Notes: generated by a model not told the origin, from the letters alone. Shown: positions 1 through 42,942, counted from the stretch's first letter. The stretch: 64,000 nucleotides of DNA from Candidatus Thorarchaeota archaeon (GCA_003345555.1 PRDJ01000042.1:12282-76281); one strand, 5' to 3'. Translations and numbers: made by a program.

Positions 1-12
1 AGAGATGCTGTC

Positions 13-423
13 GTGTCAAGGCTTGACGAGGATATCCCACCTGTCATGCTTGAGATGATCGATGACATCGACGGTCTGAAGGCGCGAGTCGCCCATCTTG
101 AGAGAATCCAATCCACAAGCTATTACCTTGGCAAGCTCAGTGATGAAGTCAAGAGTAAGGTTTGTCGTGATGATCTTGATAGAAAGCTGCTGGCATATCT
201 TCTCCAGCACGAAGGAGCCACCACACCAGAACTTGCCCAGTCACTCTTGAGTAGCAATGGAAAGCGCCGGACGATTCTCGGTAGGATAGACAAGCTGAAT
301 CAGCGGGCTCGCACCATCCTTGGTGTACGCATACTGGAGCATGAGAGAGGGCTGGTGAAGGGGAAGCGCGGCGCCTGGTGGATAATCCATTCAGAAAAGC
401 TAGTCCAGGTCCGAGATGTATAG
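13..423 (+). CDS. hypothetical protein with C-terminal winged-helix-like region. The start codon is GTG and the frame may continue upstream of the window.
   Basis: ORF track 136 aa; coiled-coil N-terminus, then a helix-turn-helix-like KLLAYLLQHEGATTPELAQSL; no family recognised. Confidence 0.35.
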   Translation: MSRLDEDIPPVMLEMIDDIDGLKARVAHLERIQSTSYYLGKLSDEVKSKVCRDDLDRKLLAYLLQHEGATTPELAQSLLSSNGKRRTILGRIDKLNQRARTILGVRILEHERGLVKGKRGAWWIIHSEKLVQVRDV

Positions 424-500
424 TGTCAAAGAGGTGCTCGTCATTCGCAGGGGAGAGGAATAAAAGTCCTTAAGGAACAGAATCAATCCCGGTCCTCAAC

Positions 501-578
501 GGGCGCGTAGTCTAGCTTGGACAAGGCACCAGCCTCCGGAGTTGGATGTCGTCGGTTCGAATCCGACCGCGCCCGCCA
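501..578 (+). tRNA. tRNA-Arg (anticodon CCG), CCA encoded
   Basis: Cloverleaf read directly: acceptor GGGCGCG/CGCGCCC, D-stem GTCT/AGGC, anticodon stem CCAGC/GTTGG with loop CTCCGGA, T-arm GTCGG-TTCGAAT-CCGAC, discriminator G, CCA. Confidence 0.85.
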
Positions 579-663
579 TGTCTCCTTGTCGGCGAGTCAC
601 TGCTCTTTTCTCTCGGACTTTATATTGCATACAAAGGCTGACATTATCTTGAACTGAGAGGTA

Positions 664-879
664 TTGACTATGAGTGCAGTTCAAGAAACCCTCAATCCTG
701 ATGAAGTGCTGGTCAGGAGATTCACACGATATCTAAATGGGCCGATGGGCAAGGCAGTTCTGCAAGCTTTGAATGAGGGTGAAAGCTTCTTGCTGCAGAC
801 GTCTAATCATACATTCAAGGTGACCAAGAGCAGGGGTCGTGCAGTGGTAGACCTTCTCAGTTCACGCGAATTCTCATAG
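664..879 (+). CDS. small hypothetical protein between the two tRNA genes
   Basis: 71-aa ORF only; no recognisable motif. Confidence 0.2.
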   Translation: MTMSAVQETLNPDEVLVRRFTRYLNGPMGKAVLQALNEGESFLLQTSNHTFKVTKSRGRAVVDLLSSREFS

Positions 880-957
880 ATTGCAGGTAGTCATGCTAAA
901 CTCATCCACTATCTACTACGAAGAGTCTATAAGTCAGACTCATCCCGACTGTCTTTG

Positions 958-1065
958 GGGCGCGTAGTCTAGCTTGGACAAGGCACCAGCCTGCGGAGTT
1001 GGATGTCGTCGGTTCTCATGAGCCGAGTTGCAGCTCATGGCCGAGAAATCCGACCGCGCCCGCCA
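958..1065 (+). tRNA. tRNA-Arg (anticodon GCG) carrying a 30-nt non-canonical intron in the T-loop (about 1016..1045, position 56/57)
   Basis: Body identical to the tRNA at 501..578 except anticodon loop CTGCGGA. The T-loop TTC|AAAT is interrupted by tcatgagccgagttgcagctcatggccgag, which has an internal CATGAGC/GCTCATG helix (BHB-like). 3' end CCGACCGCGCCCGCCA. Confidence 0.8.
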
Positions 1066-1185
1066 TCTCGTCACCAATGGGACCATTGTCTTTTCGAGAA
1101 GCTTAAATGGAGCACAGCTAAAAGGTGAGAAAAGACCCCTGACAGGTCCTGTCCCATATGCGTCCGCCTTACTGACCCGCTTCTG

Positions 1186-2325
1186 GTGAAACATCCTATG
1201 CAGTCCACATCACAGAGAATCGAAAGGATTCATCGTACTATGCAGCGGGAAGGTGTCGACGCAATACTTGTAACGCGAAGAACTGATGTACACTACCTCA
1301 CTGGCTATGAAAGCGTCTCAGAGAGTCTTCCTGTAGGATCCGTGATTGTCGAAGGCCAGCTTCCATACCTGATCATGCCCGAACTTCAACGTGAAGCCAT
1401 GGGCCAAGATTCGACCATGGCAAAGTTGCGTTCTTTCGCTGACGCGCCCTCTGAACACTGGTATCCTAATCATGGGCCGGGCTTCTGGGATTGTATTGAC
1501 GATATTCTGCGTGAAGCAGGGGTTCACAGGGGGATGATCGGGCTACAGCACGACTGCCTCTCAATAAGAGAATTCGAATCCCTCAAGTCTGCTTTTCCTG
1601 ATGCTGGTTTCAAAGACTTCTCAAGGGCCCTATGGCGTCTCAGGCAGATTAAGGACGCGGCGGAGATTGATGCTATAAGACAAGCAGTGAAAATCGCAGA
1701 AATAGGTGTCAGGACTGCGCTTGAGACAGTAAAGGCAGGCAAGACAGAAGCTCAATGCTCGGTAGATATTGAGGCTGCGATGAGAGGCGCAGGCGGGGAG
1801 CTTAGAGGAATCAGGGCTGCTGTTTTGGCAGGCGGTCACGCACGCTTTCCGTTTGCACAGCCAACGACCGCTAGGGTTAGCAACAGTGAGCTAGTTTTGG
1901 TTGATGTCACCGTAAGCCATTCCGGATACTTGGCCGAGGTGGCTCGAACCGTGCATGCCGGAAGTCCGTCGACAGTTCAGCGGAAGCTATTCGGCTCAGT
2001 ATTGGCCACAAATGACGCTCTGCAAAGCGTGATGGCGCCGGAGACCAAGATATCCGAAGCGGCTACCCAAGCGCTCAAGATTGCTGGAAATGGGTCGCCC
2101 GTTCGCGGAGTCATACAGCCATTGGGCAGTTCAATAGGTCTTGACATAAGGGAGCCACCTTACATATACCAAGAGAGTAAGTCCACTTTCCGGGAGGGTA
2201 TGGTGTTCTCGGTTCACCCCACGATATACGAACCGGAAGCAGGGTGCGCGAAGATTGCAGACGTTCTCATGATCACCGGCGAAGGCTGCGAGAGCCTGAC
2301 TACGATTTCAAAGGAGACGCTTTAG
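1186..2325 (+). CDS. M24 family metallopeptidase (Xaa-Pro aminopeptidase/prolidase-like)
   Basis: 379 aa; creatinase-like N-terminus plus pita-bread region (VLVDVTVSHSGYLAEVARTVHAG ... FSVHPTIYEP ... ADVLMITGEGCESLT). Confidence 0.75.
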   Translation: MKHPMQSTSQRIERIHRTMQREGVDAILVTRRTDVHYLTGYESVSESLPVGSVIVEGQLPYLIMPELQREAMGQDSTMAKLRSFADAPSEHWYPNHGPGFWDCIDDILREAGVHRGMIGLQHDCLSIREFESLKSAFPDAGFKDFSRALWRLRQIKDAAEIDAIRQAVKIAEIGVRTALETVKAGKTEAQCSVDIEAAMRGAGGELRGIRAAVLAGGHARFPFAQPTTARVSNSELVLVDVTVSHSGYLAEVARTVHAGSPSTVQRKLFGSVLATNDALQSVMAPETKISEAATQALKIAGNGSPVRGVIQPLGSSIGLDIREPPYIYQESKSTFREGMVFSVHPTIYEPEAGCAKIADVLMITGEGCESLTTISKETL

Positions 2326-2326
2326 T

Positions 2327-2851
2327 TCAGGGTCCTACCTGCCACTTTCTGAGTTTCTGAAATACTTGAGCGATAGTCTCTGCTCTCGTTGTGTGCTTGC
2401 TTACTTCCTCCCTTGAAACCTCTCGTATCTGAGCGGCCGGGGCACCAGAGTTCATACTTCGCGGGGGAATTACCACGTGTGCTGGTACGATGCTTCCAGG
2501 AGCAAGCATGACTCCTTCTCCTAGAGTAGCTCCATCGAAGATAACGCAGCCATCTCCGATGTTTGTATTGTCCCCGATGTACACACCGTGGACTACTGAC
2601 GCAGTGCCGATGATGGTGAAGTTGCCGATTATGGTCGGATTGTCTTTCGTGTGAGCATGGATTACGACGCTGTCTTGAACACAAGTGCTCTCCCCTATTC
2701 TGACCGAAGCCTGATCACCACGGATGACAGCGCCAGGCCAGACGCTTGCCCGTGCTCCTATCTCCACATTTCCTACGATGGTAGCTTGATGGCTCACAAA
2801 AGCTGTTGAGTCGATTTTCGGGAGGCGATCTCCAGAAGGAAGGATGGGCAT
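2327..2851 (-). CDS. gamma-carbonic anhydrase / hexapeptide-repeat (LbH) family protein
   Basis: 174 aa with repeated [LIV]G-x4 hexapeptides (IVGNVEIGARASVWPGAVIRGD ... IIGNFTIIGTASVVHGVYIGDNTNIGDGCVI). Confidence 0.8.
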   Translation of the reverse strand: MPILPSGDRLPKIDSTAFVSHQATIVGNVEIGARASVWPGAVIRGDQASVRIGESTCVQDSVVIHAHTKDNPTIIGNFTIIGTASVVHGVYIGDNTNIGDGCVIFDGATLGEGVMLAPGSIVPAHVVIPPRSMNSGAPAAQIREVSREEVSKHTTRAETIAQVFQKLRKWQVGP

Positions 2852-2929
2852 AACCTCACCTCGTTTATTCTGCCCAAGTGAGGTTCAAGATTCTAATAAA
2901 CAAAGCTCAGGTTGTCAGACGGTTTAGTG

Positions 2930-3298
2930 TTATCCGAGGAGAGCGCGAATCACTTCTTCGTAGTGCCCAGCGGGCCGAAGTCCTATCAGCCTGTCCATCA
3001 TGATTGCTTTCTTGCCTTTCGGCCCCGGTGACTCGAACCGAGCAGGTTTGCCCTCGAAATAGACAAGCACGCAGGGTATCGCATTAATGCCATGTTTCAT
3101 GGCGAACTGGGGATAGTCTTGAGTGTTAATCTTGACGAATTTCACATCCGGGTTGTCCGCATACTTCTCGGCGAGTCCTTCAAGTATTGGCGCCAAGGCA
3201 ACGCACGGGCCGCACCAAGGTGCCCAAGAATCGACAAAGAGGAGTTTCGATTCCTGTATTTCATCCTCAAGGGTCTCCGGGTTTACTTCCTTAACCAC
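2930..3298 (-). CDS. trx: thioredoxin
   Basis: 122 aa with WCGPC active site and thioredoxin fold pattern. Confidence 0.85.
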   Translation of the reverse strand: MVKEVNPETLEDEIQESKLLFVDSWAPWCGPCVALAPILEGLAEKYADNPDVKFVKINTQDYPQFAMKHGINAIPCVLVYFEGKPARFESPGPKGKKAIMMDRLIGLRPAGHYEEVIRALLG

Positions 3299-3451
3299 CC
3301 TGCATCACTTAGTCCCAGTTTCGCCGGGTGGCACATTAAGAACGTTGCTGTCTAGGATAACCGACTGAGTGGTACTCGAAGACGATGAAGACCGTTGCCC
3401 TTTGTTGTCCGACGACATCGTCTTTCTCCCGAGGCGTGGCCAATGCAGGGC

Positions 3452-4054
3452 CTATATCCTCTCGGTCTTTACGGCTAGAGTTGCTCCACAATGAGGGCAT
3501 CGGACCGAGTCGGGTCCGACCCATTCCATCTCTTTCGGATTGATGCTCGCACCACACTTGTAGCATTTCTCAGGCGCCTTCCTGGTGACCATCACCTCCC
3601 GCTCTACAGCGACGCCTCCTTTGGTGGGTGCTGCCCTCATGAAAGTGTTACCCTGAATGGTGCCTGCCAAGTCTCCAGATGCTATCGCCGCGTATAGAAC
3701 ATCGTTAACGAGGGACGCAGGCCTGCTGCTCATTCGGCTCATCTCGTCTAAGGTCACTCTGTCATAGCCTCTGGCTATTCCGATGATCTTGACTCTCGAT
3801 ATCTCAAGCCGATACTTTCTCCAAGTGAAGAAAAGGACCGGAACGGAAGCGAGATACATGACGGCAACGACGACGTAGGCCTCCAATCCATAGTACCCAT
3901 GACCCGTGAGTGTGACATATATGAAATTACCCAACAGCAAGGTCGCAAAGGCAAGACCTGCCAAAGAAACTAGGATTAGTGGCAAGAACAGGCAGTAGAT
4001 TTTCGTACTGCTTGACATTTCCATCCTCCACCGAAATCGAATCAAACGTTGCAC
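3452..4054 (-). CDS. membrane protein with cytoplasmic winged-helix-like segment and C-terminal zinc ribbon
   Basis: Two N-terminal hydrophobic helices; C-terminal CYKCG...CPHCG. Confidence 0.45.
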   Translation of the reverse strand: MQRLIRFRWRMEMSSSTKIYCLFLPLILVSLAGLAFATLLLGNFIYVTLTGHGYYGLEAYVVVAVMYLASVPVLFFTWRKYRLEISRVKIIGIARGYDRVTLDEMSRMSSRPASLVNDVLYAAIASGDLAGTIQGNTFMRAAPTKGGVAVEREVMVTRKAPEKCYKCGASINPKEMEWVGPDSVRCPHCGATLAVKTERI

Positions 4055-4261
4055 ATATGATTAAACCATCTAATAACCATAGCGGGATGGTGCAAGCAAC
4101 GCCGCGACTTGGTCAGCATGAGCATTCATGTAGAATACTGCAGCTGAGCTGCCTGCCGGTCCAAACTCTATCCAATGATTCGCCAATCGAGTGAGACGGT
4201 GCAAGTCGCACTCTGACAGCACCCTTATGTAGTTCGCAGGGGAAGGGCTTACGGGAATGCG

Positions 4262-4753
4262 TTGGTGAGTGAGATTAGCAGAATTCCATTGAGATACATG
4301 TTCTGGGCTATTCTCTACTCATTCATAATCAATCTTCTTGACGAAACGATGATGAATGGTGGCTTCGTCGAAGGGGTGAAGACGCATTTCTGGGCAGATT
4401 TCTCTTCTGACAAGTTCTTCTTAATGAACGGTCTGTTCATTCTTTTCATCACGGTGAGCATTCTAATCTATGAAAGAAGAGGCGGCCGCTGGGTTGTGTT
4501 CCCGCTTTTCTGGTCGATGGAACGCACGTTCAATGGATTTTGGCATGTCTGGTGGACTCTTGCATTCCTCAGTTACTCTCCTGGTTTGGTGACCAGTGGC
4601 CTCTTCTGGATCATCACATACTTGCTGGTCAAGGAGAACTACAGACAGGGCGATTTCACAAGAAGACAACTACTGACAGCAACTGCGACTGCGTTGGTCT
4701 TTGAGTCACTATTCCTAGGACTGTTTCTGGTTGTTCCTCTGTTAGGAGCATAG
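4262..4753 (+). CDS. polytopic membrane protein, hypothetical
   Basis: 163 aa, four or five hydrophobic spans. Confidence 0.45.
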   Translation: MVSEISRIPLRYMFWAILYSFIINLLDETMMNGGFVEGVKTHFWADFSSDKFFLMNGLFILFITVSILIYERRGGRWVVFPLFWSMERTFNGFWHVWWTLAFLSYSPGLVTSGLFWIITYLLVKENYRQGDFTRRQLLTATATALVFESLFLGLFLVVPLLGA

Positions 4754-4782
4754 TGCACACGGCATAAAGAGTGAAGTGGATG

Positions 4783-5142
4783 CTACGCGTCTCCGCCCAA
4801 GAGACTCTCGACGAGTTCGGCATAGATTTCCTCCGGCATGACACCGACGAGTCTGTCCATTTTCTTACCGCTTCCATCATCGAATACTACACGCCTGCCT
4901 TCGCTGAACACGAAGACCGAAGGTACACCACTCACTCTGTTCTTCATACTGAATTCCCGGTTATTGTCAACGTCTATCTTTACGACCTTAAGCCCTCTAT
5001 CGCCATACTTCTCAACTAGTCCCTCAAGAATCGGGCTCAGGACTTTGCAGGGGTGACACCAAGTGGCAAAACAGTCCACAAACACCAGCTTGTTGTCGCT
5101 GACGACTTTTTCAAGCTGGTCAGACATGATTTCATCAACCAT
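4783..5142 (-). CDS. thioredoxin paralog (WCHPC active site)
   Basis: 119 aa; ATWCHPCKVLSPILE, same fold pattern as the thioredoxin at 2930..3298. Confidence 0.8.
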   Translation of the reverse strand: MVDEIMSDQLEKVVSDNKLVFVDCFATWCHPCKVLSPILEGLVEKYGDRGLKVVKIDVDNNREFSMKNRVSGVPSVFVFSEGRRVVFDDGSGKKMDRLVGVMPEEIYAELVESLLGGDA

Positions 5143-5306
5143 CGATTACTTTCTCCACTCATCGGTTGTGCACGATTACCGCACAACCCTTTTAATGTTT
5201 ACGATAGAACACCAAGAAGGTGTTCTGCTATCTGCTTTTCAGTTTTCATCGGCTGTGCACTGCCAAACTTTGATAAGCGCCAGACCGACGTGCTGTCAAG
5301 TCCTAG

Positions 5307-7967
5307 GTGATTGCCATGCCTGTGCTCCATTGCCCCACGTGTGGTTCCAAGCTTGACATCTACAAGGGCGGCCAGGTATGGACAGTTCGATGTCCTACAT
5401 GCAACACGCAGGTAGACGTCGGAGGCCGGAACAAGGATCTTCTTGATGCTTACGAAGCGTACATTCAAGCTGTTCAGAGCGGCACGGCCCGGACAAGCAC
5501 TGGCCCACGATTGGCCAAGACTGAGGTGCCCCTAAGCACTATCGTCGAGGAAGAGGGAATCGGCAAGAGGACAGTCCATCGCGGCGGCGAGAAGAAACAG
5601 TCCCGGGAAGAAGTTGCCAAGACTGTGGCAGCTGGTGGCTCAAGCATCGATGAATTGCCGCACGCCTTGAGACCTCTGATTGAGAGCGGTAGGGACTACT
5701 TGGTGACCTATCGCTACAATACCGCCACGGATGCTGAATATGGCTGCAGCATAGATGATCTGAAGATACCGTCGAGGCTGAAGTCATTACTCCTGAAGAG
5801 GGGCATATCTCGTCTGTACAAGTTTCAGGAACAGGCCCTTGAAGAGATTCAGGCGGGAAAGGACGTCGTGCTAGTAGCTCCCACAGGACAGGGCAAGACA
5901 GAGGCTTTTGTCCTGCCGATTATCAACAGACTTCTGGCGACCACACAAGACGCATTTGCCGAAAGGGGTATCAGAGCTCTCCTAGTATATCCCACCAAAG
6001 CGCTCGCAAGAGATCAGTATGACAAACTCGAACAGATGTGCTCAGCATCCAGTTTGAGACTTGGAGTCTTCGATGGCGACGTTCCGGCTAATCAGCGGGA
6101 GAAAATCTATGCGAACCCACCCGACATTCTGCTGACCAACCCAGACGTGCTACACTATCACCTAGGGTGGGACCGGTCACGTTTGGTACCTCTGCTGCGA
6201 TCGGTCAAACATGTTGTACTTGATGAGATTCATCTCTACACGGGGTCCATGGGCGCGAACGTCTACTACATTCTAAAACGTCTGGAGATGGAGTCGGGTA
6301 AGCTTCAGGTTGTGGGCGCCTCAGCAACGGTATCCAATCCGGTAGAGTTCGCTGAGCAACTCTTCGACAGACCTGTCCAACTTATTGAGTCGACATCTGC
6401 ACGCCGGGGTCCGTTTCACTTCTGCATGTACTTTCCAGCTGAACGCAGCAAATATAGCATGATAGTTGACTTGGTCCGGATGCTCCAGCGGGGCCAGTAC
6501 AAGACTTTGGTCTTTGGCAATACCCACTCCGAAGCTGAGTTGCTGAACCTCCTGCTCAGGAATGCCGGCGTGAAATCCGAGATTCATAGGGCAGGTTTGT
6601 CAAAGGCGCACAGGACTCAGGTAGAGAACGAGTTCAAGTCGGGGCAATTGCCAGTGCTTGTATCCACACCCACGCTTGAACTGGGCATAGACATCGGAGA
6701 CCTTGACAGCGTAGTGAGCATGATTGTTTCAATCACGAGACTGACTCAGAGAATCGGGAGAGCCGGACGCAAAGGGCAGGAAAGCGTCGCGATTCTTGCT
6801 CTTCGTGAGAATGATCCGATTTCAGCCTACTATCGGCTTAGACCTGACAAGTATTTCACTGACATAGACTCAGCCTACATGGAACCGGAGAACGAAGTCG
6901 TCGGACGATATCAGCTCATGGCCGCAGCCTTGAGTGGAAAGCTGGACGTATCTCAGTTTCCAAGGCAACGGAAGATAATCGACTCGTTGGTTGCAGAGGG
7001 CCTTCTCAAGGTGCTTGCTACCGGACAGGTCAGAGTGGCCGAAGCTAATAAAGTTCGCAAGGAATTGCGAGACTACAACGTTCGTGGGATAGGTGCGACA
7101 ATCGAAATCAAGAGCGGAATGAAAACACTCGGCGAACGTTCGATGCCTATGGCCGCTCAAGAGCTTCACCCAGGAGCAATCTACCTACATGGCGGCAAGA
7201 ACTACCAATGTGTCGATTTCAAGTACATTCCTCCCATCGGAAGAGCGACCGTAGCTCCTATGCAAGATCGTAGCTATTACACCCGTCCGTTGTACATGAC
7301 CATGCCTAGGATAGTCGAGTCGCACGAAGAACGACAGGTCTTGGGTCTCAAGGTCCTCTACTGCAGTCTAGAGATGACGCAGACTGTAACAGGCTTTGTC
7401 AAGAAGGAAACACTCTCCGGCAGAAACGTGAGCAAAGCAGAACTTCCTCAGCCGCTGGAGTACAAGTATCCGACCCGTGGCTTCGTGTTTTCAATGCCGG
7501 AACCTAAATCTGCAATCGACGATTATACTCATGGCAAGTTCGCCAGTCTGGGTGGTCCGAAGATGAGCCCAGTTGAGCTCTATGGAGGCACATTTCATGC
7601 AGTGGAGCATGTCATAATCGAGTCGAGTGACATGCTGACCGGCGGAGGGACCAGAGAGATAGGCGGCGTGTCGATGGGTGACTCCGGTATCATATTCGTC
7701 TACGATGGTAGTCCGGGCGGCAATGGAGCATCTAAGCTGCTCTTTGGTAGACTCGATGAAGCGTTTCAAAGGGCCGAGACCATGCTTGCAAAGTGTGACT
7801 GCAAGACTATCGACGGATGCCCACTCTGCACATATTCCTATCAATGCGGCAATAACAACCAACCGCTGTTCAAGCTCGGTGCTCTAGAGAGCATAAGAGC
7901 GGTCCTGAACAGAGCTGAGACAAAGGTCGATGTGGTCGGATACTCAACCTATGAGCCTGTCGTATAG
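5307..7967 (+). CDS. DExH-box helicase with N-terminal zinc ribbon and C-terminal DUF1998/MZB domain (MrfA/YprA-like)
   Basis: 886 aa. N-terminal CPTCG...CPTCN; motif I APTGQGKTEAF; motif II VLDEIHLY; SAT; motif VI QRIGRAGRKGQ. C-terminal four-Cys cluster CDCKTIDGCPLCTYSYQCGNNNQP typical of DUF1998. Confidence 0.85.
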   Translation: MIAMPVLHCPTCGSKLDIYKGGQVWTVRCPTCNTQVDVGGRNKDLLDAYEAYIQAVQSGTARTSTGPRLAKTEVPLSTIVEEEGIGKRTVHRGGEKKQSREEVAKTVAAGGSSIDELPHALRPLIESGRDYLVTYRYNTATDAEYGCSIDDLKIPSRLKSLLLKRGISRLYKFQEQALEEIQAGKDVVLVAPTGQGKTEAFVLPIINRLLATTQDAFAERGIRALLVYPTKALARDQYDKLEQMCSASSLRLGVFDGDVPANQREKIYANPPDILLTNPDVLHYHLGWDRSRLVPLLRSVKHVVLDEIHLYTGSMGANVYYILKRLEMESGKLQVVGASATVSNPVEFAEQLFDRPVQLIESTSARRGPFHFCMYFPAERSKYSMIVDLVRMLQRGQYKTLVFGNTHSEAELLNLLLRNAGVKSEIHRAGLSKAHRTQVENEFKSGQLPVLVSTPTLELGIDIGDLDSVVSMIVSITRLTQRIGRAGRKGQESVAILALRENDPISAYYRLRPDKYFTDIDSAYMEPENEVVGRYQLMAAALSGKLDVSQFPRQRKIIDSLVAEGLLKVLATGQVRVAEANKVRKELRDYNVRGIGATIEIKSGMKTLGERSMPMAAQELHPGAIYLHGGKNYQCVDFKYIPPIGRATVAPMQDRSYYTRPLYMTMPRIVESHEERQVLGLKVLYCSLEMTQTVTGFVKKETLSGRNVSKAELPQPLEYKYPTRGFVFSMPEPKSAIDDYTHGKFASLGGPKMSPVELYGGTFHAVEHVIIESSDMLTGGGTREIGGVSMGDSGIIFVYDGSPGGNGASKLLFGRLDEAFQRAETMLAKCDCKTIDGCPLCTYSYQCGNNNQPLFKLGALESIRAVLNRAETKVDVVGYSTYEPVV

Positions 7968-7979
7968 GAGCGTGAAGTT

Positions 7980-9923
7980 GTGACTGAGTTCCTTATCAAT
8001 CGTGGTCATGATGGTCCTGCTCGCTCTGGTACGCTCAGGCTGAAATCCTCAACTACATCCACACCCGCCTTGATCGGAGGAACTAGTTCTACTGATTCTA
8101 TTCTAGGGATCTGGACCTTAGGACGTGATTCTCGGCCATTGTCGGTCCCCTGCATTCTCGCCCTGCCTCCTCTCTCAGACTACACCGATTCGATGCTGGA
8201 ATTGATCCGAGATGATGATCCGATTCTCTTGCCATCGCTGCCATCCTCATCGACCTTGGGCCCGGACTTTGCAGCGGCTCTTCTCAATCGACAGCTGGTT
8301 CTTCTACAGAATTCAGGAGATATGATTGAACCGTCGAGAGTGATAGTTAGAATACCTCCTCAAGTAAAACATGAGCTTCTTGACTCCATAGTCCCTCGGT
8401 TCGACGAGCTAGGCGTTCGCGGTGCGGCGTTCGTATTCAACGGCGAGCTTGGTCCGAACGACCGAGACTCGCTAGCGCTTCGGTCAAGGCTTCCTCGCAA
8501 TTGGCTAACATTGGCGCTCGGAAGAATAGAGCCGTATGCCATTCCAGTATTCTACTATCTGGGTCTTGACTTGATTGATGCTGGTAGAGCATTGGGTGCG
8601 GCGGCTCAGGGAATCCGTCTGTGGCCCAGAGGATACGAGAGCATTCCACATTCCGAGGAGATACGCTATTGTTCTTGTCACGCATGTTCGTCGCAGACGA
8701 ATCTAGCAGATATTGACAGAGAAGCCCTTCAGACAGTTCTCGTGGCACACAACATGGGTCTCTGCAGGACGTTTCTCTCAGAGAGTGTGAACGCGGCACA
8801 TTTGGGGCAGCTGCGGTCTCTTGTCGAATCTATGACCCACTCAAGCCCGGCATCTGCAGCTTTCCTGAGAACCGTCGATAAGGAACTCTACACTTTTACC
8901 GAAGAGTTCACCAACACAACGGGGAGTGGTGCTCTGCCGCTCATTGGTCCGGAGTCGTACAATTCCCCTGTTGTGAGACGATTCCGTGAATATGTCGCAT
9001 CAAGATATGTGCCACCTAGTTACAAGAAGCTCATACTAATCCTGCCATGTTCTGCCCGCAAGCCGTATTCAGACTCAAAGTCACACAAGCTGTTCCGGGA
9101 GGTCACCGATGCAGGCTTGGGAGCATCGAGATTCGCAGTCGCGGAAACCATACTGACATCGCCACTAGGGGTTATTCCCAGAGAGCTTGAACGAAGTTAC
9201 CCGGCATCCTTCTACGATCTTCCTGTGACCGGTGATTGGGACGCAGAGGAAACCGCGATTGCTGCTGACGCACTTTCTGTGCACCTGGCAAAATTCGACA
9301 AATCGGCTGTGGTTATTGCACACGTTTCGGGAGGGTATGAAGATGCTGTCAAGGCTGCTGAATCCAGAATTCAGCAGAGCATAATTTACACCACGAGTGG
9401 TCAACCAGCTACCAGCAGGGAGTCGCTAGAATCTCTGGGGGAGACTCTCAAAGAACTGGTGGATGTTCTCTCCCTGAAGTCCGGCCGTAGCCTTGAGAAC
9501 AAGGAGATACTTCGGGCAACTGCTGACTTCCAGTTCGGATCCGGTTCGGGCGAAGTTCTGATTCCCGAGAATGCATCGGTATGGGGCAAGCCTTATGGTA
9601 TGATTGTTAGTCGGATTGAGAAAGAGCAGACCTGCGCCTATGTGGCTGCTTCGGGTGCTCTCTCTCTTACGCTTGTGGGCGGGCGGCTAGTAGCTCCTCT
9701 TGAACGATACTGGGTACGATTCGATGGGCGCCGGATAAAGGGGGGTTCGGTCTTTGCTGTTGGCGTCCTTGACGCAGACCCGAAGATACGACCGGGCGAC
9801 GAGGTTATTGTGATTGGGACTGATGATGAGGTCATAGGAGTAGGCCGCAGTGAAATGTCTGGCATTGAGATGTGTGAGTTCGAGAAGGGCTGCGCAGTGT
9901 CCGTGCGGCACAAGGTGGATTGA
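7980..9923 (+). CDS. archaeosine synthase (ArcS)-like protein: TGT-fold domain, DUF5591-like middle region, C-terminal PUA domain
   Basis: 647 aa. TGT zinc motif CSCHAC...H (CxCxxC-H); PCSARKPY segment; C-terminal PUA-like YWVRFDGRRIKGGSVFAVGVLDADPKIRPGDEVIVI. Starts 12 nt after the helicase stop. Confidence 0.55.
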   Translation: MTEFLINRGHDGPARSGTLRLKSSTTSTPALIGGTSSTDSILGIWTLGRDSRPLSVPCILALPPLSDYTDSMLELIRDDDPILLPSLPSSSTLGPDFAAALLNRQLVLLQNSGDMIEPSRVIVRIPPQVKHELLDSIVPRFDELGVRGAAFVFNGELGPNDRDSLALRSRLPRNWLTLALGRIEPYAIPVFYYLGLDLIDAGRALGAAAQGIRLWPRGYESIPHSEEIRYCSCHACSSQTNLADIDREALQTVLVAHNMGLCRTFLSESVNAAHLGQLRSLVESMTHSSPASAAFLRTVDKELYTFTEEFTNTTGSGALPLIGPESYNSPVVRRFREYVASRYVPPSYKKLILILPCSARKPYSDSKSHKLFREVTDAGLGASRFAVAETILTSPLGVIPRELERSYPASFYDLPVTGDWDAEETAIAADALSVHLAKFDKSAVVIAHVSGGYEDAVKAAESRIQQSIIYTTSGQPATSRESLESLGETLKELVDVLSLKSGRSLENKEILRATADFQFGSGSGEVLIPENASVWGKPYGMIVSRIEKEQTCAYVAASGALSLTLVGGRLVAPLERYWVRFDGRRIKGGSVFAVGVLDADPKIRPGDEVIVIGTDDEVIGVGRSEMSGIEMCEFEKGCAVSVRHKVD

Positions 9924-9932
9924 GAGTAAGCC

Positions 9933-11033
9933 ATGGATGATTTTACGGATGAACTGCACAGGCTTGTTGTCGAGGAAACAAGGAGTGCAAGAGGAGCCTC
10001 AATTCGCAAACGTCCTGCTAGACCTGCCATCATGCCAGCTTCTGCATGGACGACAGAGACCCGAATTTCGTCCGAGACCGGAAGGGCTCTGTCCATTGTG
10101 TTTTCCACGATAGGATGTGCTCACGCGCGCGATGCCTCCGGAGGTTGCACTATGTGCAGTTACCTTCTGGATGGCACTCAAAGGTCACCGTCGTCCGAAG
10201 AGCTTCAACAGCAGTTCACGAACGCAATGTCAAAGCTAGAGGGGGCACCTAGCCCGGTCTCTGTGAAGCTCTACACCAGTGGTAGCTTCTTGGACCCGGG
10301 CGAGGTGCCGGTCTCTGCTAGGACTGCCATATTGGAGATGCTTGCTGCTGACAGCCGAGTACGTGAGGTAGTGCTGGAATCGCGCCCTGAGTATGTGTCT
10401 CAGGAGGTCATGGCGGAGCTGAGAAAGTCTCTTGGAGACAAAGAGATAGAACTCGGCATTGGTCTGGAGAGCAGTAATGATCTGATTAGGTCAATATGCA
10501 TCAACAAGGGGTTCTCAGCTGAGGACTTTCACAATGCCATCGAGATAGCAAGGTCAGAAGGAATTGGTGTGCGTGCCTATGTCTTGGTGAAGCCTCCCTT
10601 CCTGACTGAAAGGGATGCTCTTCTTGATGGCATACAGACGATTCGTGATGTAGCCGCCATGGGTGCCACAACAATCTCAGTCAATCCTGTCAACGTCCAG
10701 AGCTATACTCTCGTGGAGCGGCTGTGGTCCAGAGGCGAGTATCGGCCCCCGTGGCTGTGGACTGTGCTTGAGATTCTGCGACAGTCGAGTAGTTCCTCGG
10801 GCGATTCAGTCAGAATTGTGTGCGACCCCGTGGCGGCGGGAAGAATACGAGGAACGCACAACTGTGGGGTTTGTGACGAGGCTGTCTCGCAAGCCATTCA
10901 TGAGTTTTCCTTAGTTCAGGATGCATCCGTTCTGGAGGGTCTCGACTGCAGCTGCTTGTCTGAGTGGGAACATGTGCTGGAACACGAAGACTCGTCGCTG
11001 TTAGTGCACGATCATACGTTAACGGGCAAATAG
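9933..11033 (+). CDS. radical SAM-like protein with atypical Cx9Cx2C motif (RaSEA-like partner of ArcS)
   Basis: 366 aa; GCAHARDASGGCTMCSY cluster; TIM-barrel-like pattern (LYTSGSFLD, ELGIGLESS, VKPPFLTERD); starts 9 nt after the ArcS-like gene. Confidence 0.45.
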   Translation: MDDFTDELHRLVVEETRSARGASIRKRPARPAIMPASAWTTETRISSETGRALSIVFSTIGCAHARDASGGCTMCSYLLDGTQRSPSSEELQQQFTNAMSKLEGAPSPVSVKLYTSGSFLDPGEVPVSARTAILEMLAADSRVREVVLESRPEYVSQEVMAELRKSLGDKEIELGIGLESSNDLIRSICINKGFSAEDFHNAIEIARSEGIGVRAYVLVKPPFLTERDALLDGIQTIRDVAAMGATTISVNPVNVQSYTLVERLWSRGEYRPPWLWTVLEILRQSSSSSGDSVRIVCDPVAAGRIRGTHNCGVCDEAVSQAIHEFSLVQDASVLEGLDCSCLSEWEHVLEHEDSSLLVHDHTLTGK

Positions 11034-11076: not shown

Positions 11077-11454
11077 TTGATAAGCGAGGTCTTCGAAATG
11101 GCAAGATACGTCACTCGAGTTTCTGTTTGGTTCAATAGTGAGGGTGCAAGCCCTTCCACAGTCATAAGGAAGCTTGTCAGTCTTGGATTCATACCAGTGC
11201 GGGGTGCATACGATTTCATCTACAAACATGAATCTCCGCAAGACATGACAGAATCAGAACTCAGCACTGCTATTATTGAGATTTCCAACGCGCTTCACAA
11301 GACTCTTGCCGGGTTCAAGGTTCTCTATACACTAGACACGCACACACTAGATGACGAATCTGATTACGTCCCTCTCGAGGACATAGACGCAGAGCTTGAA
11401 GCAACAAGGAAGGAAATCCAAGAACTGGAGAGAGAGACTTCGGAATTCAGCTAG
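11077..11454 (+). CDS. hypothetical protein
   Basis: 125-aa ORF with acidic C-terminus. Confidence 0.3.
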   Translation: MISEVFEMARYVTRVSVWFNSEGASPSTVIRKLVSLGFIPVRGAYDFIYKHESPQDMTESELSTAIIEISNALHKTLAGFKVLYTLDTHTLDDESDYVPLEDIDAELEATRKEIQELERETSEFS

Positions 11455-14245: not shown

Positions 14246-15151
14246 ATGTACGAATACAAATCGCAGCAACGGACACTAGAATTCGGTGGTGTGAAGATCG
14301 GAGGAACACCGGGGCTTGCGCCGACAGTCCTCATAGGTTCCATTTTCTATTCGAAAGATAAGTTAGTGCTTGACCCGAAGGCTGGTGATATAGACAAGCC
14401 TCAGACGGACAGAGTTCTGACTGAAGTCGCAGATATGTCAGAAAGAACGGGGTTACCCAGCATGCTGGACGTAGTTGCATCCTCGTCACCCGCAATGAGG
14501 CGATACATCACCTACCTCGCCGACAAGACGAGTATGCCGCTGCTAATCGACGGGTCTGGCTCTCAAGACGTGAATCTCGCCGGCATAGAGATGGCGCGTG
14601 AGAATGGCATGCTGGACAGAGTAATGCTCAATTCATTGACCCCGGAGACTAGTAATGAAATGTACAGGAAGATGCAGGAGGCAGGTCTCAAGAGTGCAGT
14701 TATCCTTACATTCTCCAAGGATGCTATGTCTTCTGTAGCAAAAAGAACCGAACTCGCTGATCAAATCCTTGCAAAAGCCACAGACTCTGGATTGACCAAC
14801 CTGATAATCGACACTGGGGTTGTAGATATGCTCACTCTTGGACTTGCCTGCAAAGCCATGCAATCAATCAAGGACAAGCTTGGCTACCCGGTAGGATGCG
14901 GTGCCCATAATGCGGTGAACATGTGGGCCGGCTTGGTTCCAAAATTCGGGAAGGACGCGAAGAATCCGGCTCTTGTTGGATCGAGTCTCATGCCCGTTGT
15001 TCTTGGGGCCGACTTCGTGCTTTATGGTCCCGTGAAGCATGCAGGTATTGTATTTCCTTCTGTGGCCATGATTGACACGGCTCTCTCAGGCGTGCTGCTA
15101 GAGAAGAGAATCCGACCGGACCGACAGCATCCTCGCTTCAGAATCGGCTAG
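14246..15151 (+). CDS. mtrH: MtrH-family methyl-H4MPT:corrinoid methyltransferase (stand-alone)
   Basis: 301 aa. Strong resemblance to MtrH: FGGVKIGGTPGLAPTVL, GYPVGCGAHNAVNMW, GADFVLYGPVKHAGIVFPSVAMID. Confidence 0.85.
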   Translation: MYEYKSQQRTLEFGGVKIGGTPGLAPTVLIGSIFYSKDKLVLDPKAGDIDKPQTDRVLTEVADMSERTGLPSMLDVVASSSPAMRRYITYLADKTSMPLLIDGSGSQDVNLAGIEMARENGMLDRVMLNSLTPETSNEMYRKMQEAGLKSAVILTFSKDAMSSVAKRTELADQILAKATDSGLTNLIIDTGVVDMLTLGLACKAMQSIKDKLGYPVGCGAHNAVNMWAGLVPKFGKDAKNPALVGSSLMPVVLGADFVLYGPVKHAGIVFPSVAMIDTALSGVLLEKRIRPDRQHPRFRIG

Positions 15152-15162
15152 GTGATTCTGAC

Positions 15163-16818
15163 TTGTCAGGACCTATGCTTGTGTTTGAACCATCTGGCCA
15201 GAGGATTTACGTGTCTCATGCTACAACGGTGCTTGACGCAGCTCGCAGTCTTGGTCTTCCCATTCCTACAGACTGTGGAGGCCATGGCACATGCGGAAAG
15301 TGCAGGATTAAGTTTCAACCAGCGCCATTCCCGACTCAACGGGATTTGCAGCATCTATCCAAGGACGAACTGGCAGAAGGTATACGTCTGGCCTGCGAGC
15401 ACGTGATTGAAACAGACACGAGGGTTGTTCTTCCATTTCCTGAAGAGCAGGCCAAGATTCTGGTCTGGGGATCTTCGAAGGCTGCTGTGCAGAAACTGGA
15501 CAAAGGCCTTGTCGGACAGTTGGGAGTCGCAATAGACCTAGGCACGACAACCATAGTAGCTTACCTCATGGACCTGGGGACAGGTAGTCAGATTGAACAA
15601 CAGGCAATGCTCAACCCAGAGGTTGCCTATGGGGAGGACATCATGACGCGCATGGCCTATGTCATGAACGCGCATGAGGGCGGTGAGGAGCTCCGTCAAT
15701 GTGTGCTTCGCGGCATTGATGTGCTTCTCACGCGTCTTATTAGCGCAGCAGGAGTACTTCCCGACACTGTCTCTCGCATCTCGCTTGTGGGCAACACTGC
15801 CATGCACCATCTCTTTTTGGGATTGGACATCCACGGTCTGAGTCTTGCACCGTACAGACCAGCCATGTTGAAGTCACTCACGAAATCATCTGACGAAATC
15901 GGGCTCAAGTCCGTTCCAAAGGCTCAGGTATATGTTGCTCCGAATATTGAAGGTTTCATAGGCAGTGATACGGTAGGTCTTATTGTCTCACAAGGGCTTG
16001 GCTCTGTCAAGGGCACAGTGATGGGGATTGACATAGGAACCAACGCAGAGATAGTCCTCTCGGTTCGCGGGCGCCTCATATGTTGTTCAGCAGCAGCAGG
16101 TCCTGCGTTCGAAGGAGCAAGAATCAGGCTTGGCATGAGGGGCGAAGAGGGTGCGATAGAACACGTGCGTATCAACAATCCCTCAGAGCCGGCAGAATTG
16201 TCTGTGATAGGACAGGCTTCTCCTCGAGGCATTTGCGGCTCAGCTATCGTCGACATAGTCGCCGAGCTGTTGAGAACAGGTCTTGTAGACCGTACTGGAC
16301 GGATGCGAGACTCGAAGAGGATTGTTCATGAAGGCGGGTACGGTCTCTGCTACATCGTAGCAGAACCAGGCGAGTCTGACGCGGGCCGACGCATAGTGTT
16401 CACTCAGGAAGACGTAAGACAGGTCCAGCTTGCAAAGGCAGCAATTGCTACGGGTGCCGGGGTCCTAATGGATGAATGCGGCGTTACCTCTTATGATATT
16501 GATGCGCTTCTTCTAGCCGGCGCATTTGGAAACTACATCCGCCCTGAGAGTGCCTTAGCGATTGGTCTTCTTCCTGCGATCCCACTGGACAGAATCGTTC
16601 CGGTTGGAAACGCAGCAGGTGAGGGTGCCAAGAGGTTTCTTCTGTCCTTGAAAGAGAGGGCGGTTGCTGAGACGCTTAGCAGGAGCGTCAAGTACGTCAA
16701 TCTTGCTGCTCATCCAGCGTTTGCTGACAGGTTCTTGGAGGCCACAGCAATAGGTCAAGCTGGAGACGGTTCGAATCACAGCCATGTGCGGATAGCCAAC
16801 CACACTAGCAATCCGTAG
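15163..16818 (+). CDS. corrinoid activation/regeneration protein (RACo family: 2Fe-2S ferredoxin plus ASKHA ATPase)
   Basis: 551 aa; N-terminal CGGHGTCGKCR ferredoxin motif followed by a large ASKHA-like domain. Confidence 0.7.
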   Translation: MSGPMLVFEPSGQRIYVSHATTVLDAARSLGLPIPTDCGGHGTCGKCRIKFQPAPFPTQRDLQHLSKDELAEGIRLACEHVIETDTRVVLPFPEEQAKILVWGSSKAAVQKLDKGLVGQLGVAIDLGTTTIVAYLMDLGTGSQIEQQAMLNPEVAYGEDIMTRMAYVMNAHEGGEELRQCVLRGIDVLLTRLISAAGVLPDTVSRISLVGNTAMHHLFLGLDIHGLSLAPYRPAMLKSLTKSSDEIGLKSVPKAQVYVAPNIEGFIGSDTVGLIVSQGLGSVKGTVMGIDIGTNAEIVLSVRGRLICCSAAAGPAFEGARIRLGMRGEEGAIEHVRINNPSEPAELSVIGQASPRGICGSAIVDIVAELLRTGLVDRTGRMRDSKRIVHEGGYGLCYIVAEPGESDAGRRIVFTQEDVRQVQLAKAAIATGAGVLMDECGVTSYDIDALLLAGAFGNYIRPESALAIGLLPAIPLDRIVPVGNAAGEGAKRFLLSLKERAVAETLSRSVKYVNLAAHPAFADRFLEATAIGQAGDGSNHSHVRIANHTSNP

Positions 16819-17005
16819 ACGAATCTCCAAAGCCAGTATCCATGATGAAAGATATATGTCCGTCAGCTTCCGGAGAATCCTAGTCCAATCAGCAGATGGC
16901 CACAGGACAGCCCGAAGCCGCTAAGATCCGTTGGCAAGGGCTGAGACCAGTCGATCTGCACCTGCGACACGACTAGTGACACTCCAAAGACTGAGGAAAT
17001 GCAAA

Positions 17006-17635
17006 ATGACAGATTTGACAGACGCAATGGCAGACCTTGACGAGCAGAAAGTGTTGAACATTGTCAATGAACAAATCCGCACGAACAAACCCGTTCAGAT
17101 TCTCGATGAATTACGGCGAGGCTTGGACATCGTGGGTAACAGGTTCTCAAAGAATGAGTATTTTCTGGTCGAGTTGGTGATGTCAGCCGACATATTCAAG
17201 AAAGCGATGGCGATAGTAGAACCGAAACTGCTGGCTACTCAGCGTGCGAGCGCAAAGGGTAAGGTCGTAATCGGGACTGTCCAAGGCGACATCCATTACA
17301 TAGGCAAGAACCTTGTCGTTGCGTTTCTCAAATCCAACGGATTCGAGGTCTACGATTTGGGCGAAGATGTGCCGCCTGAGAAGTTTGTTGACACGCTCAA
17401 GAAAACAGGATCTTCCATTCTTGCGCTTAGCGGGCTGATTACTACTACTCATGATGTAATGCGAACGACAATTGAGGCGCTCAAGACTGCAGGCATTAGG
17501 AAGAAGGTCAAAGTAATGATTGGCGGTGGAGACATCGGCGAGGAGATCGTGAAATACACTGGTGCAGATGCTTTTGGTAGGGATGCCCTTAGTGCAGTAG
17601 AGCTTGCCAAGAAGTTCACTGCGGGGACAAAGTGA
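17006..17635 (+). CDS. cobalamin-binding corrinoid protein (MtaC/MtbC-like)
   Basis: B12-binding motifs GDIHYIGKN (DxHxxG), LALSGL (SxL), MIGGG. The ORF-track start at 16931 is probably spurious; ATG 17006 is in the same frame. Confidence 0.8.
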   Translation: MTDLTDAMADLDEQKVLNIVNEQIRTNKPVQILDELRRGLDIVGNRFSKNEYFLVELVMSADIFKKAMAIVEPKLLATQRASAKGKVVIGTVQGDIHYIGKNLVVAFLKSNGFEVYDLGEDVPPEKFVDTLKKTGSSILALSGLITTTHDVMRTTIEALKTAGIRKKVKVMIGGGDIGEEIVKYTGADAFGRDALSAVELAKKFTAGTK

Positions 17636-19123: not shown

Positions 19124-19142
19124 ATACTACGAGTGATGCGCT

Positions 19143-20906: not shown

Positions 20907-20914
20907 GGCGCATC

Positions 20915-41439: not shown

Positions 41440-42177
41440 ATGGACGAACCACTGCAATCCGCGCTCTACGCATCAATCGCTACACTGGACCAGCTCAAGA
41501 AAATGTACGACATGGGCGTTGTTGATGTCAGGTCGTATGAAAGGGAGTCTGAAGCGCTAATAACAGAGGTTCGGAATTGCATCGAACAGATGCGGAGAAC
41601 CGGTCTTGACGTTGGGAACTTCGTGGGTCAGGCCCGGATATCGGAGTCGTTTCCCGAAGCGTCGAACATGCTGGGGCTGTACGGACGAGACACGCGGCAG
41701 CCAGGTATAGGGATGACAACTGATCAGTACTTCGACTACATCGGACTTGCCGTCTTAGATGTGGCTACCGCGAATTCCTCGAAAGGGCTGATGGGACTTG
41801 CGGAACTCATTGTCGAGGTCGTGCGCCTGCTGCCAGAGCTCAAGTCTGTCAGCTACAATGACGTGATCGAGGCAGTGAACCGCGTGTCTCAACATGGATT
41901 GATACCGGGCATTCGGACGCTTAGGGGCGGAGTCAAAGTTGTGGAACTGCGTCCGTTAGAGCTGCGTCGTGACCAAGCAGATGTAATCAATGCTGCCGCC
42001 ACCAAGGGGTACGTTTCCATTGAAGAGCTCATGATGCAGCTCAAGTGGTCAGAGGACCATGCACGTCAAGTTCTCTCCAGTCTGGTCGATGCTGGCATGG
42101 CAGTGGCAGACATACGGTTCTCGACGGGTGGCCGCTATTACTTCCCGGGTTTAAGACCTAGAGATAGTACAGTGTAG
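41440..42177 (+). CDS. ESCRT-II Vps22/EAP30-like tandem winged-helix protein (tentative)
   Basis: 245 aa; helical N-terminus and two WH-like segments; context with Vps25-like and Vps4. Confidence 0.4.
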   Translation: MDEPLQSALYASIATLDQLKKMYDMGVVDVRSYERESEALITEVRNCIEQMRRTGLDVGNFVGQARISESFPEASNMLGLYGRDTRQPGIGMTTDQYFDYIGLAVLDVATANSSKGLMGLAELIVEVVRLLPELKSVSYNDVIEAVNRVSQHGLIPGIRTLRGGVKVVELRPLELRRDQADVINAAATKGYVSIEELMMQLKWSEDHARQVLSSLVDAGMAVADIRFSTGGRYYFPGLRPRDSTV

Positions 42178-42939: not shown

Positions 42940-42942
42940 TCC

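Follow-up and report, generated by a model that had tools for sequence, protein, structure and literature searches.

The window analysed here is a 64,000-nt stretch of the chromosome of a Thorarchaeota (Asgard) archaeon. Three plus-strand ORFs were read at 5307-7967, 7980-9923 and 9933-11033, and the spacers between them were 12 nt (7968-7979, helicase/ArcS) and 9 nt (9924-9932, ArcS/RaSEA), which confirmed from the sequence the arrangement given in the original prediction. The first ORF encodes a YprA/MrfA-family DExH helicase, the second ArcS, the archaeosine synthase alpha subunit (647 aa, GTG start), and the third RaSEA, the radical SAM enzyme for archaeosine formation (366 aa). A small conserved ORF of 118 aa (11098-11454, plus strand) lies 64 nt 3' of RaSEA. 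The window is core chromosome and contains ESCRT genes, aminoacyl-tRNA synthetases, PolB, TFIIB and Mre11-Rad50. Among the approximately 55 window ORFs scanned, we found no arcTGT, queCDE, dpdA or defence genes, no Pfam matches to TGT, QueC, QueD or QueE, and no nuclease or methylase.

The helicase (plus strand, 5316-7967) is 883 aa long when read from ATG 5316, as in the public gene calls for the source contig, versus 886 aa from GTG 5307. It had been described as a zinc-ribbon DExH helicase with a C-terminal DUF1998 domain, and this description held. The order is N-terminal zinc ribbon, RecA1, RecA2 and C-terminal MZB/DUF1998, and the Pfam scores for DEAD (126.8 bits), Helicase_C (71.4 bits) and MZB (PF09369, formerly DUF1998; 48.0 bits) are all above the gathering scores. 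The motifs GQGKT and DEIH are at residues 191 and 303. The zinc ribbon CPTC-x16-CPTC occupies residues 6-29 (5331-5402, plus strand), and the MZB/DUF1998 four-cysteine zinc cluster CDCKTIDGCPLC occupies residues 827-838 (7794-7829, plus strand); its cysteines C827, C829, C835 and C838 are invariant in the helicase orthologue alignment A1. The pattern CPxC...CxxC recurs in the consensus sequence built from 22 non-Thorarchaeota orthologues, and in loci of Heimdallarchaeota and Nitrososphaeria the tblastn matches begin between query residues 1 and 6.

The best solved relative of the helicase is B. subtilis YprA/MrfA (6znp, 209 bits). Residues 151-839 are colinear with chain positions 41-730 over approximately 690 residues, and TIGR03817 was matched at 328 bits, below its cut-off of 874, over model positions 24-740 of 742. 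Like MrfA/YprA of B. subtilis and SftH of M. smegmatis, the protein combines DEAD, Helicase_C and MZB/DUF1998 with the 4-Cys cluster, and it has no large insertions, being colinear with both 6znp and TIGR03817. Unlike MrfA, it has an N-terminal extension of about 150 residues with a CPxC...CPxC zinc ribbon, which is common to other archaeal orthologues. One branch of the YprA family is set apart as repair/housekeeping (Bell et al. 2025, PMC12458937); it is termed 'YprA only' and has no conserved gene context (PMC12458937). No MrfB/YprB-like exonuclease, the partner in the MrfAB subtype, was found among the neighbouring ORFs scanned, so the helicase fits the 'YprA only' type. Judged by its sequence, it is a YprA/MrfA-type 3'-5' DNA helicase and a member of this repair/housekeeping branch, with a predicted function for the archaeal clade.

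YprA-family helicases are also core components of Dpd and BRIGADE systems (PMC12458937), and the locus resembles these in that such a helicase adjoins a TGT-superfamily protein and 7-deazaguanine chemistry. The architecture was originally thought to be common to Dpd helicases. This needs correcting for the 4-Cys DUF1998 cluster, which is retained here and has been lost in DpdJ (Bell et al. 2025, PMC12458937). The helicase matched DpdJ NF041067 at 79.9 bits (cut-off 800) and DpdF NF041063 at 72.2 bits (cut-off 550), in both cases over part of the core only, and the PADLOC DpdJ model at 82.7 bits over residues 260-349. Defence clades of the YprA family have large inserted domains, and the colinearity with MrfA leaves no space for them (PMC12458937). 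ArcS, RaSEA and the small ORF gave zero matches to PADLOC defence models. Unlike Dpd with its DpdA/B/C and DpdJ, the locus is without DpdA, a preQ0 synthesis cluster or a nuclease, its TGT-like protein is an ArcS with a PUA domain, and it lies outside a defence island.

ArcS (plus strand, 7980-9923) was expected to have a TGT fold, a CxCxxC-H zinc site, a DUF5591 region and a PUA domain, and Pfam, AlphaFold2 and motif reading bore this out. The domains are a TGT-like Nt (approximately 1-330), C1/DUF5591 (332-490), C2 (511-571) and PUA (587-645). Pfam matches to DUF5591 (164.2 bits), PUA (56.7 bits) and TGT_C2 (25.7 bits) are all above the gathering scores; the Pfam TGT model reached 21.0 bits, under its gathering score of 26.3. 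Structure comparison of the AlphaFold2 model (pLDDT 89.9) recovered full-length P. horikoshii ArcTGT (1iq8; E 4e-27, TM 0.71 on the target), and also bacterial and eukaryotic TGTs and AF0587 (2q07). At the level of this model, the N-terminal half does adopt a TGT fold, and CSCHAC 231-236 with H257 aligns to the ArcTGT zinc site. The C1 signature PC-X3-KPY-X2-S-X2-H (PMC10516641) is present as PCSARKPYSDSKSH at residues 356-369. This segment is nearly invariant in 34 ArcS orthologues: all defined signature residues are invariant, and only R360, D365 and K367 vary. The score against NCBIfam NF040592 was 388.5 bits, below the equivalog cut-off of 440, and the aligned part of the model is confined to positions 120-575, with the first 165 or so residues of ArcS outside the alignment. 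The runner-up, NF053620 (188 bits), is likewise an ArcS model. These comparisons indicate that the gene 2 product is a divergent ArcS orthologue rather than a member of another family.

Viral ArcS2 proteins (Vibrio phage nt-1, Sulfolobus virus STSV-2) have the same DUF5591 core and signature motif. ArcS2 forms dG+ in DNA; it consists of the C1 domain alone, without Nt or PUA, and works with DpdA on DNA (PMC10516641). In contrast, the ArcS found here has Nt, C2 and an RNA-binding PUA domain and is paired with RaSEA; no DpdA accompanies it.

The third gene (plus strand, 9933-11033) had been called a RaSEA-like radical-SAM protein with a Cx9Cx2C cluster, correctly so. It scored 357.7 bits against TIGR01210 (curated equivalog cut-off 212.15) over model positions 2-309 of 313, and its radical-SAM [4Fe-4S] cysteines are C62-x9-C72-x2-C75. 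The generic Pfam Radical_SAM model gave 29.3, marginally under the gathering score of 29.5. ArcS and RaSEA are an obligate complex producing G+15, and the T. kodakarensis complex works in vitro without a helicase (PMC11298593). The present pair is like the Thermococcus kodakarensis/euryarchaeal system in its four-domain ArcS (Nt, C1/DUF5591, C2, PUA), its C1 motif and the TIGR01210 partner gene directly 3' of arcS. It differs from the T. kodakarensis system in its Asgard host, its divergent ArcS and its position behind a helicase in a tight gene string. From homology to this characterised complex, we infer the chemistry of the pair. ArcS would bind, through the TGT-like Nt, C2 and PUA, a tRNA already carrying preQ0 at G15, and C1/DUF5591 would add lysine to the preQ0 nitrile. 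RaSEA, the radical-SAM partner, would then cleave the lysine adduct to yield archaeosine.

A promoter-like motif, CCAAACTTTGATAAG (5263-5277, plus strand), is located about 40 nt 5' of the helicase start. In the form CCAAA[C/G]TTTGATAAG, it occupies the same position in six of seven Thorarchaeota-type sequences (the window, L001, L007, L008, L043 and L048). The seventh, L002, has ACAAACTTTGATAAG, with one mismatch and much nearer the annotated helicase start. Within the window CCAAACTTTGATAAG is unique, and other matches need three mismatches, as chance predicts. The motif is likely a BRE/TATA promoter or operator of the transcription unit. The helicase-arcS gap is 10-20 nt in 14 independent Thorarchaeota-type loci, and the arcS-rasea gap is -1 to 21 nt in 15. 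The short gaps and the conserved upstream motif suggest co-transcription, and the three genes probably share one transcript from this element. The helicase-arcS gap is stable even though Thorarchaeota ArcS proteins share only 45-61% identity, which is compatible with selection for co-expression and makes some functional link conceivable. The small ORF follows RaSEA in 12 of 13 Thorarchaeota-type loci with downstream sequence (it is missing in L086), was found in no non-Thorarchaeota locus examined, and has neither a Pfam nor a PADLOC match. An exact copy of TTGATAAGCG is present at 11077-11086, just 5' of this ORF, whose place in the transcription unit is uncertain.

The distribution of the helicase was followed in 62 loci, namely 59 of 80 species-level loci with a YprA-type orthologue and three more. 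ArcS-RaSEA lies downstream of the helicase in all nine Thorarchaeota-type loci of this set. The other 53 span Heimdall, Hod, Njord, Culex, Nitrososphaeria, Bathyarchaeia, Crenarchaeota and Archaeoglobaceae; a search of the DNA around the helicase gave no ArcS or RaSEA match in any of them, and the neighbours vary by lineage (small GTPase, ribosomal protein S17e, GNAT acetyltransferase, Hef). Seen from the other gene, 73 non-Thorarchaeota ArcS loci gave no helicase match in their 6 kb flanks, and RaSEA adjoins ArcS in 11 of these. Recurrence of the adjacency outside conserved gene order, which we used as the test of functional linkage, was thus seen on neither side (0/53 and 0/73). The three-gene synteny that had been proposed as a check is present in Thorarchaeota-type loci and absent from the helicase and ArcS loci elsewhere.

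Within Thorarchaeota, RaSEA is directly 3' of arcS in all 15 independent loci, and the pair is never split. A block of about 13 kb of unrelated housekeeping genes on mixed strands is equally syntenic: M24 peptidase, hexapeptide transferase, thioredoxins, helicase, ArcS, RaSEA, small ORF, DUF11 protein and metallo-beta-lactamase. Every helicase-ArcS locus with sampled flanks also carries this flanking block. The Thorarchaeota-type locus L087 keeps ArcS-RaSEA and all downstream genes; unrelated ORFs lie upstream, with no helicase within 6 kb upstream of ArcS and no copy of the promoter-like motif on this contig. The proposal of a novel 7-deazaguanine modification or surveillance module gains no support from these data. 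The adjacency exists only in Thorarchaeota-type loci, where the whole block is syntenic, and it is broken in L087. The helicase is widespread without ArcS close by, as is ArcS without the helicase close by, and the defence models gave no PADLOC match for ArcS, RaSEA or the small ORF and only scores far below the DpdJ/DpdF cut-offs for the helicase. The more modest option in the original prediction, tRNA archaeosine synthesis beside an unrelated neighbour, is favoured by the distribution, domain and defence-model evidence. We consider it highly probable that a housekeeping archaeosine pair sits behind a repair-type helicase in a lineage-specific inherited operon, without coupling of the helicase to 7-deazaguanine. 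The gene order would have been kept by inheritance, with co-regulation perhaps a further reason for keeping it.

Shared regulation alone is an unlikely alternative. The three genes and the divergent thioredoxin genes would together form a small regulon, such as one answering redox or metal stress, since each of the three products is a metalloprotein (Zn in the helicase and in ArcS, Fe-S in RaSEA). No physical or pathway link would join the helicase to archaeosine. The conserved motif is specific to the intergenic region shared with the divergent thioredoxin gene, and every Thorarchaeota-type locus with upstream sequence has thioredoxin genes flanking its helicase. However, the argument is purely inferential, the motif may simply be a basal promoter, and in L001 the thioredoxins and the helicase are separated by other, inserted genes.

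A functional partnership of the helicase with ArcS-RaSEA on RNA is also improbable. In such a partnership the helicase might open up tRNA or another structured RNA, exposing the preQ0-15 buried in the D-loop/T-loop core, or might extend archaeosine formation to non-tRNA RNAs. RNAs with a D-arm-like structure are possible substrates of ArcTGT and ArcS-RaSEA (PMC11298593), and 14 of the 15 independent Thorarchaeota-type loci retain operon-like spacing, a single conserved motif lying upstream. However, the characterised family members MrfA and SftH act on DNA, as helicases or as DNA-dependent ATPases (PMC7797055 and PMC3424565, as summarised in PMC12458937). Helicases of the same architecture are common without a nearby ArcS, including in Crenarchaeota, most of which lack ArcS (PMC5485725). 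ArcS-RaSEA in turn occurs without a nearby helicase in the 73 non-Thorarchaeota loci and L087, and the T. kodakarensis complex needs none in vitro.

A Dpd/BRIGADE-like system writing or sensing 7-deazaguanine in DNA, in which ArcS-RaSEA would convert dPreQ0 to dG+ and the helicase would be a translocase or restriction component, has the family membership of the helicase and the dG+ made by viral ArcS2 in its favour, yet is hardly credible given the lack of a DpdA-like transglycosylase, preQ0 genes, nuclease and methylase among the window ORFs scanned, the 80-83 bits on DpdJ models versus 800, the retained 4-Cys cluster, the Nt, C2 and RNA-binding PUA domains of ArcS, and a single-context core-genome locus in all Thorarchaeota sampled rather than a variable island.

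The pairing of helicase and archaeosine genes is confined to the Thorarchaeota and looks like gene order passed on by descent rather than a new DNA-modification or defence system. There is a slim chance that the Thorarchaeota helicase was recruited as a third archaeosine component, which would remodel tRNA or another structured nucleic acid to give ArcS-RaSEA access to preQ0, or direct the complex to a non-tRNA substrate. If true, such recruitment would explain why the 10-20 nt spacing under one promoter-like motif is kept across the class.

The three plus-strand genes of the original prediction were confirmed by ORFs at 5307-7967 (helicase), 7980-9923 (ArcS) and 9933-11033 (RaSEA), and direct reading of the sequence gave spacers of 12 nt and then 9 nt. 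In public gene calls on an identical ENA contig (ERZ27227667 k141_1146343), the helicase starts at ATG 5316 and has 883 aa. In 6 of the 7 Thorarchaeota-type sequences examined, the helicase start is preceded, at a distance of approximately 40 nt, by the motif CCAAA(C/G)TTTGATAAG. In the window it reads CCAAACTTTGATAAG (5263-5277), a form that is exact in the same proportion of sequences and occurs only once in the window. L002, a comparison locus, carries a copy with one mismatch closer to the helicase start, and the motif is absent from L087, another comparison locus. The 10-mer TTGATAAGCG of the motif recurs exactly once more, at 11077-11086, just upstream of a small ORF starting at 11098. 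The two sites may share a promoter or operator element, and we infer that the cluster would be co-transcribed from one promoter. A scan of the cluster for bacterial-type promoters and terminators, with bacterial models applied to an archaeal host, found fewer sites than in shuffled sequence.

The first gene had been read as a zinc-ribbon DExH helicase with DUF1998, and this proved correct. Pfam matched DEAD, Helicase_C and MZB (PF09369, formerly DUF1998), a zinc ribbon CPTC-x16-CPTC occupies residues 6-29, and the motifs GQGKT and DEIH are present. The C-terminal cysteine cluster is CDCKTIDGCPLC. Residues 151-839 align colinearly, at 209 bits, with 41-730 of the chain of B. subtilis YprA/MrfA (6znp), and the SftH-type model TIGR03817 is matched colinearly over positions 24-740 of 742. 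Matches to the defence-helicase models DruE, DrmA, DpdJ, DpdF and BrxH were confined to parts of its SF2 core. The YprA family has two branches: a repair or housekeeping branch, comprising "YprA only" members without conserved context and MrfAB members, and a defence branch, which includes DpdJ without the 4-Cys cluster and clades with inserted domains (Bell et al. 2025, PMC12458937). The window helicase retains the 4-Cys cluster that is lost in DpdJ (PMC12458937), and its colinear alignment, in contrast to the defence clades, has no space for large insertions. No MrfB-like exonuclease was found among the neighbouring ORFs scanned. These three features fit the "YprA only" type, and we assign the helicase as a repair-branch YprA/MrfA homologue.

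The TGT fold, CxCxxC-H zinc site, DUF5591 and PUA domain proposed for the second gene, and the RaSEA-like radical-SAM assignment of the third with its Cx9Cx2C motif, were likewise borne out. Pfam matched DUF5591, TGT_C2 and PUA in the second gene, and the TGT model itself gave a sub-threshold match only. The AlphaFold2 model (pLDDT 89.9) superposes on the full-length archaeal ArcTGT 1iq8, and bacterial and eukaryotic TGT barrels match the N-terminal half of the model, which indicates that the modelled TGT fold of this half is real. CSCHAC and H257 align with the ArcTGT zinc site. ArcS consists of Nt (TGT-like), C1 (catalytic), C2 and PUA (RNA-binding) domains, and the C1 motif is PC-X3-KPY-X2-S-X2-H (PMC10516641). 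All four are present in the window protein, which carries the exact motif at 356-369, and the defined residues are invariant in 34 orthologues. Viral ArcS2, which acts on DNA with the partner DpdA, consists of C1 alone (PMC10516641), whereas the window ArcS has Nt, C1, C2 and PUA. Its score on NF040592 (388.5 bits) is below the cut-off of 440 because the first ~165 residues lie outside the model, and we treated the protein as a divergent orthologue. Its 120 close homologues among the matches listed form a single orthologue group at a minimum of 50% identity. The third gene passes the curated RaSEA model TIGR01210 (357.7 bits, cut-off 212) and carries C62-x9-C72-x2-C75. ArcS and RaSEA form an obligate complex that places lysine onto preQ0-15 in tRNA, and the adduct is then cleaved to give archaeosine (PMC11298593). 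The ArcS-RaSEA pairing is canonical, and all parts of the cluster belong to known families.

A full-library search with the helicase returned full-length relatives in a gradation of identity from 30 to 47%, some labelled Heimdallarchaeota. An alignment of 22 relatives was used to scan one genome per GTDB species, giving 80 loci; with L001, L002 and the source contig (L003), 83 loci were searched by tblastn with the window ArcS and RaSEA. A YprA-type orthologue was present in 62 of these, and the other 21 match the SF2 core only. All nine Thorarchaeota-type loci (helicase identity 58-100%) have ArcS and RaSEA immediately 3' of the helicase. L001 is labelled "Lokiarchaeota" and was not taken as an independent lineage, because its entire neighbourhood is Thorarchaeota-like. 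Tblastn of the surrounding DNA found neither ArcS nor RaSEA at the other helicase-orthologue loci (0/53). These come from Heimdall-, Hod- and Njordarchaeia, a 45%-identical "Promethearchaeota" MAG, Culexarchaeia, ~35 Nitrososphaeria, Bathyarchaeia, Sulfolobales/Acidilobales and Archaeoglobaceae. Most Crenarchaeota have no ArcS at all (PMC5485725) yet retain the helicase. Clustering of all ORFs of the 83 loci revealed no partner conserved across lineages; neighbours are lineage-specific, and immediate ones elsewhere include a small GTPase, ribosomal protein S17e, a GNAT acetyltransferase and Hef. In an Archaeoglobaceae MAG (L044, 7800-12711), the gene after the helicase orthologue encodes a Hef-type helicase-ERCC4 nuclease. 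Such a repair-flavoured neighbourhood is consistent with a DNA-repair role of the helicase family.

When metagenomes were scanned with an alignment of Thorarchaeota ArcS, 80 loci were returned, 73 of them non-Thorarchaeota (30-39% identity) and 7 Thorarchaeota-type. The helicase is directly upstream of ArcS in 6 of the 7; no helicase match was found within the 6 kb flanks of the 73, of which 11 have RaSEA immediately 3' of ArcS. The exception, L087 (SDBU01000263.1), retains ArcS, RaSEA, the small ORF, a DUF11 protein and a metallo-beta-lactamase. Upstream of its ArcS (1-5985), ORFs of 1422 aa and 252 aa, neither with a Pfam match, replace the helicase block, and no helicase, helicase remnant, thioredoxin, hexapeptide-transferase or M24 genes were found there. 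L087 is a rearrangement breakpoint or insertion exactly at the helicase/arcS junction. The hexapeptide-repeat transferase (window 2327-2851), whose family in Thorarchaeota sits 2.5 kb 5' of the helicase gene, has homologues in the flanks of 14 non-Thorarchaeota ArcS loci (L092, L097, L102, L103, L106, L107, L110, L112, L113, L115, L121, L122, L130 and L156).

Within Thorarchaeota, a block of ~13 kb with genes on mixed strands is conserved throughout. Its order is M24 peptidase, hexapeptide transferase, thioredoxin(s), helicase, ArcS, RaSEA, the 118-aa ORF, a DUF11/CLIPPER protein and a metallo-beta-lactamase-fold protein. Insertions separate the thioredoxins from the helicase in L001 and the two thioredoxin genes from each other in the window, and in L002 they follow the small ORF. 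Since the whole block is conserved with such insertions, the helicase-arcS junction is not better kept than junctions of obviously unrelated genes. It is broken once (L087), and ArcS-RaSEA is intact in 15/15 independent loci. The spacing is 10-20 nt between the helicase and arcS, and between arcS and rasea it is -1 to 21 nt. The small ORF (11098-11454, plus strand), which has no Pfam or PADLOC match, is present after RaSEA at 60-90% identity in 12 of 13 Thorarchaeota-type loci, is missing in L086 and was found in no other lineage sampled. Three-gene synteny across relatives holds in Thorarchaeota-type loci except L087 and fails at the 53 other helicase loci and the 73 other ArcS loci; the helicase upstream of arcS is a Thorarchaeota-specific arrangement, probably an operon. 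No comparative signal favours a functional link of the helicase to archaeosine synthesis, which we consider very improbable, and a full-text literature search, including the Asgard archaeosine and transglycosylase literature, returned no relevant paper on such a link.

Nothing points to the DNA 7-deazaguanine modification or surveillance module of the original prediction. The scanned ORFs of the 64 kb window included no arcTGT, queC, queD, queE or dpdA, no second ArcS, and no nuclease-methylase pair or other defence gene. GC is flat (0.49-0.53), so there is no sign of an island. Membership in a defence system was rejected, as PADLOC gave zero matches for ArcS, RaSEA and the small ORF, and generic SF2-core matches only for the helicase. 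Close homologues carry Thorarchaeota names. Beyond the cluster, the ORFs scanned are those of a core Asgard chromosome. Directly downstream of the syntenic block is a corrinoid methyl-transfer cluster (14246-17635, plus strand) of an MtrH-like methyltransferase, a RACo corrinoid activase (Fer2, Raco_middle, RACo_C_ter) and a B12-binding protein. A DNA end-resection cluster (17810-24315, plus strand) contains a 437-aa ORF without Pfam match in the place expected for NurA (17810-19123), HerA (19143-20906), an Mre11-like phosphoesterase (20915-22228) and a Rad50-like SMC ATPase (22225-24315). Eukaryote-like domain matches include a PIG-U-like (GPI transamidase subunit) membrane protein (26150-27700), an IFT52 GIFT-domain protein (27701-28891, minus strand) and a weak, sub-threshold FUZ/MON1-type longin domain (52879-53712). 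The Asgard ESCRT cluster (41440-44955) comprises EAP30/Vps36-like (41440-42177), ESCRT-II/Vps25-like (42226-42939, minus strand), Vps4 AAA ATPase (42943-44172, minus strand) and Snf7 (44269-44955) genes. PolB, AspRS, ArgRS, TFIIB and TldD/PmbA are further core genes.

Only if the helicase were a physical partner of ArcS-RaSEA would a new question arise, that of a helicase assisting the modification of bases in tRNA or another nucleic acid. As a caution in genome mining, the presence of a YprA-family helicase beside a TGT-superfamily gene is not, alone, a Dpd-like signature. If the ordinary reading is true, that is, tRNA archaeosine synthesis beside an unrelated helicase, the value of the finding is modest: Thorarchaeota would use the euryarchaeal-type ArcS-RaSEA route to archaeosine, and YprA/MrfA-type helicases that carry an N-terminal zinc ribbon and lack conserved gene context would form a widespread archaeal clade.
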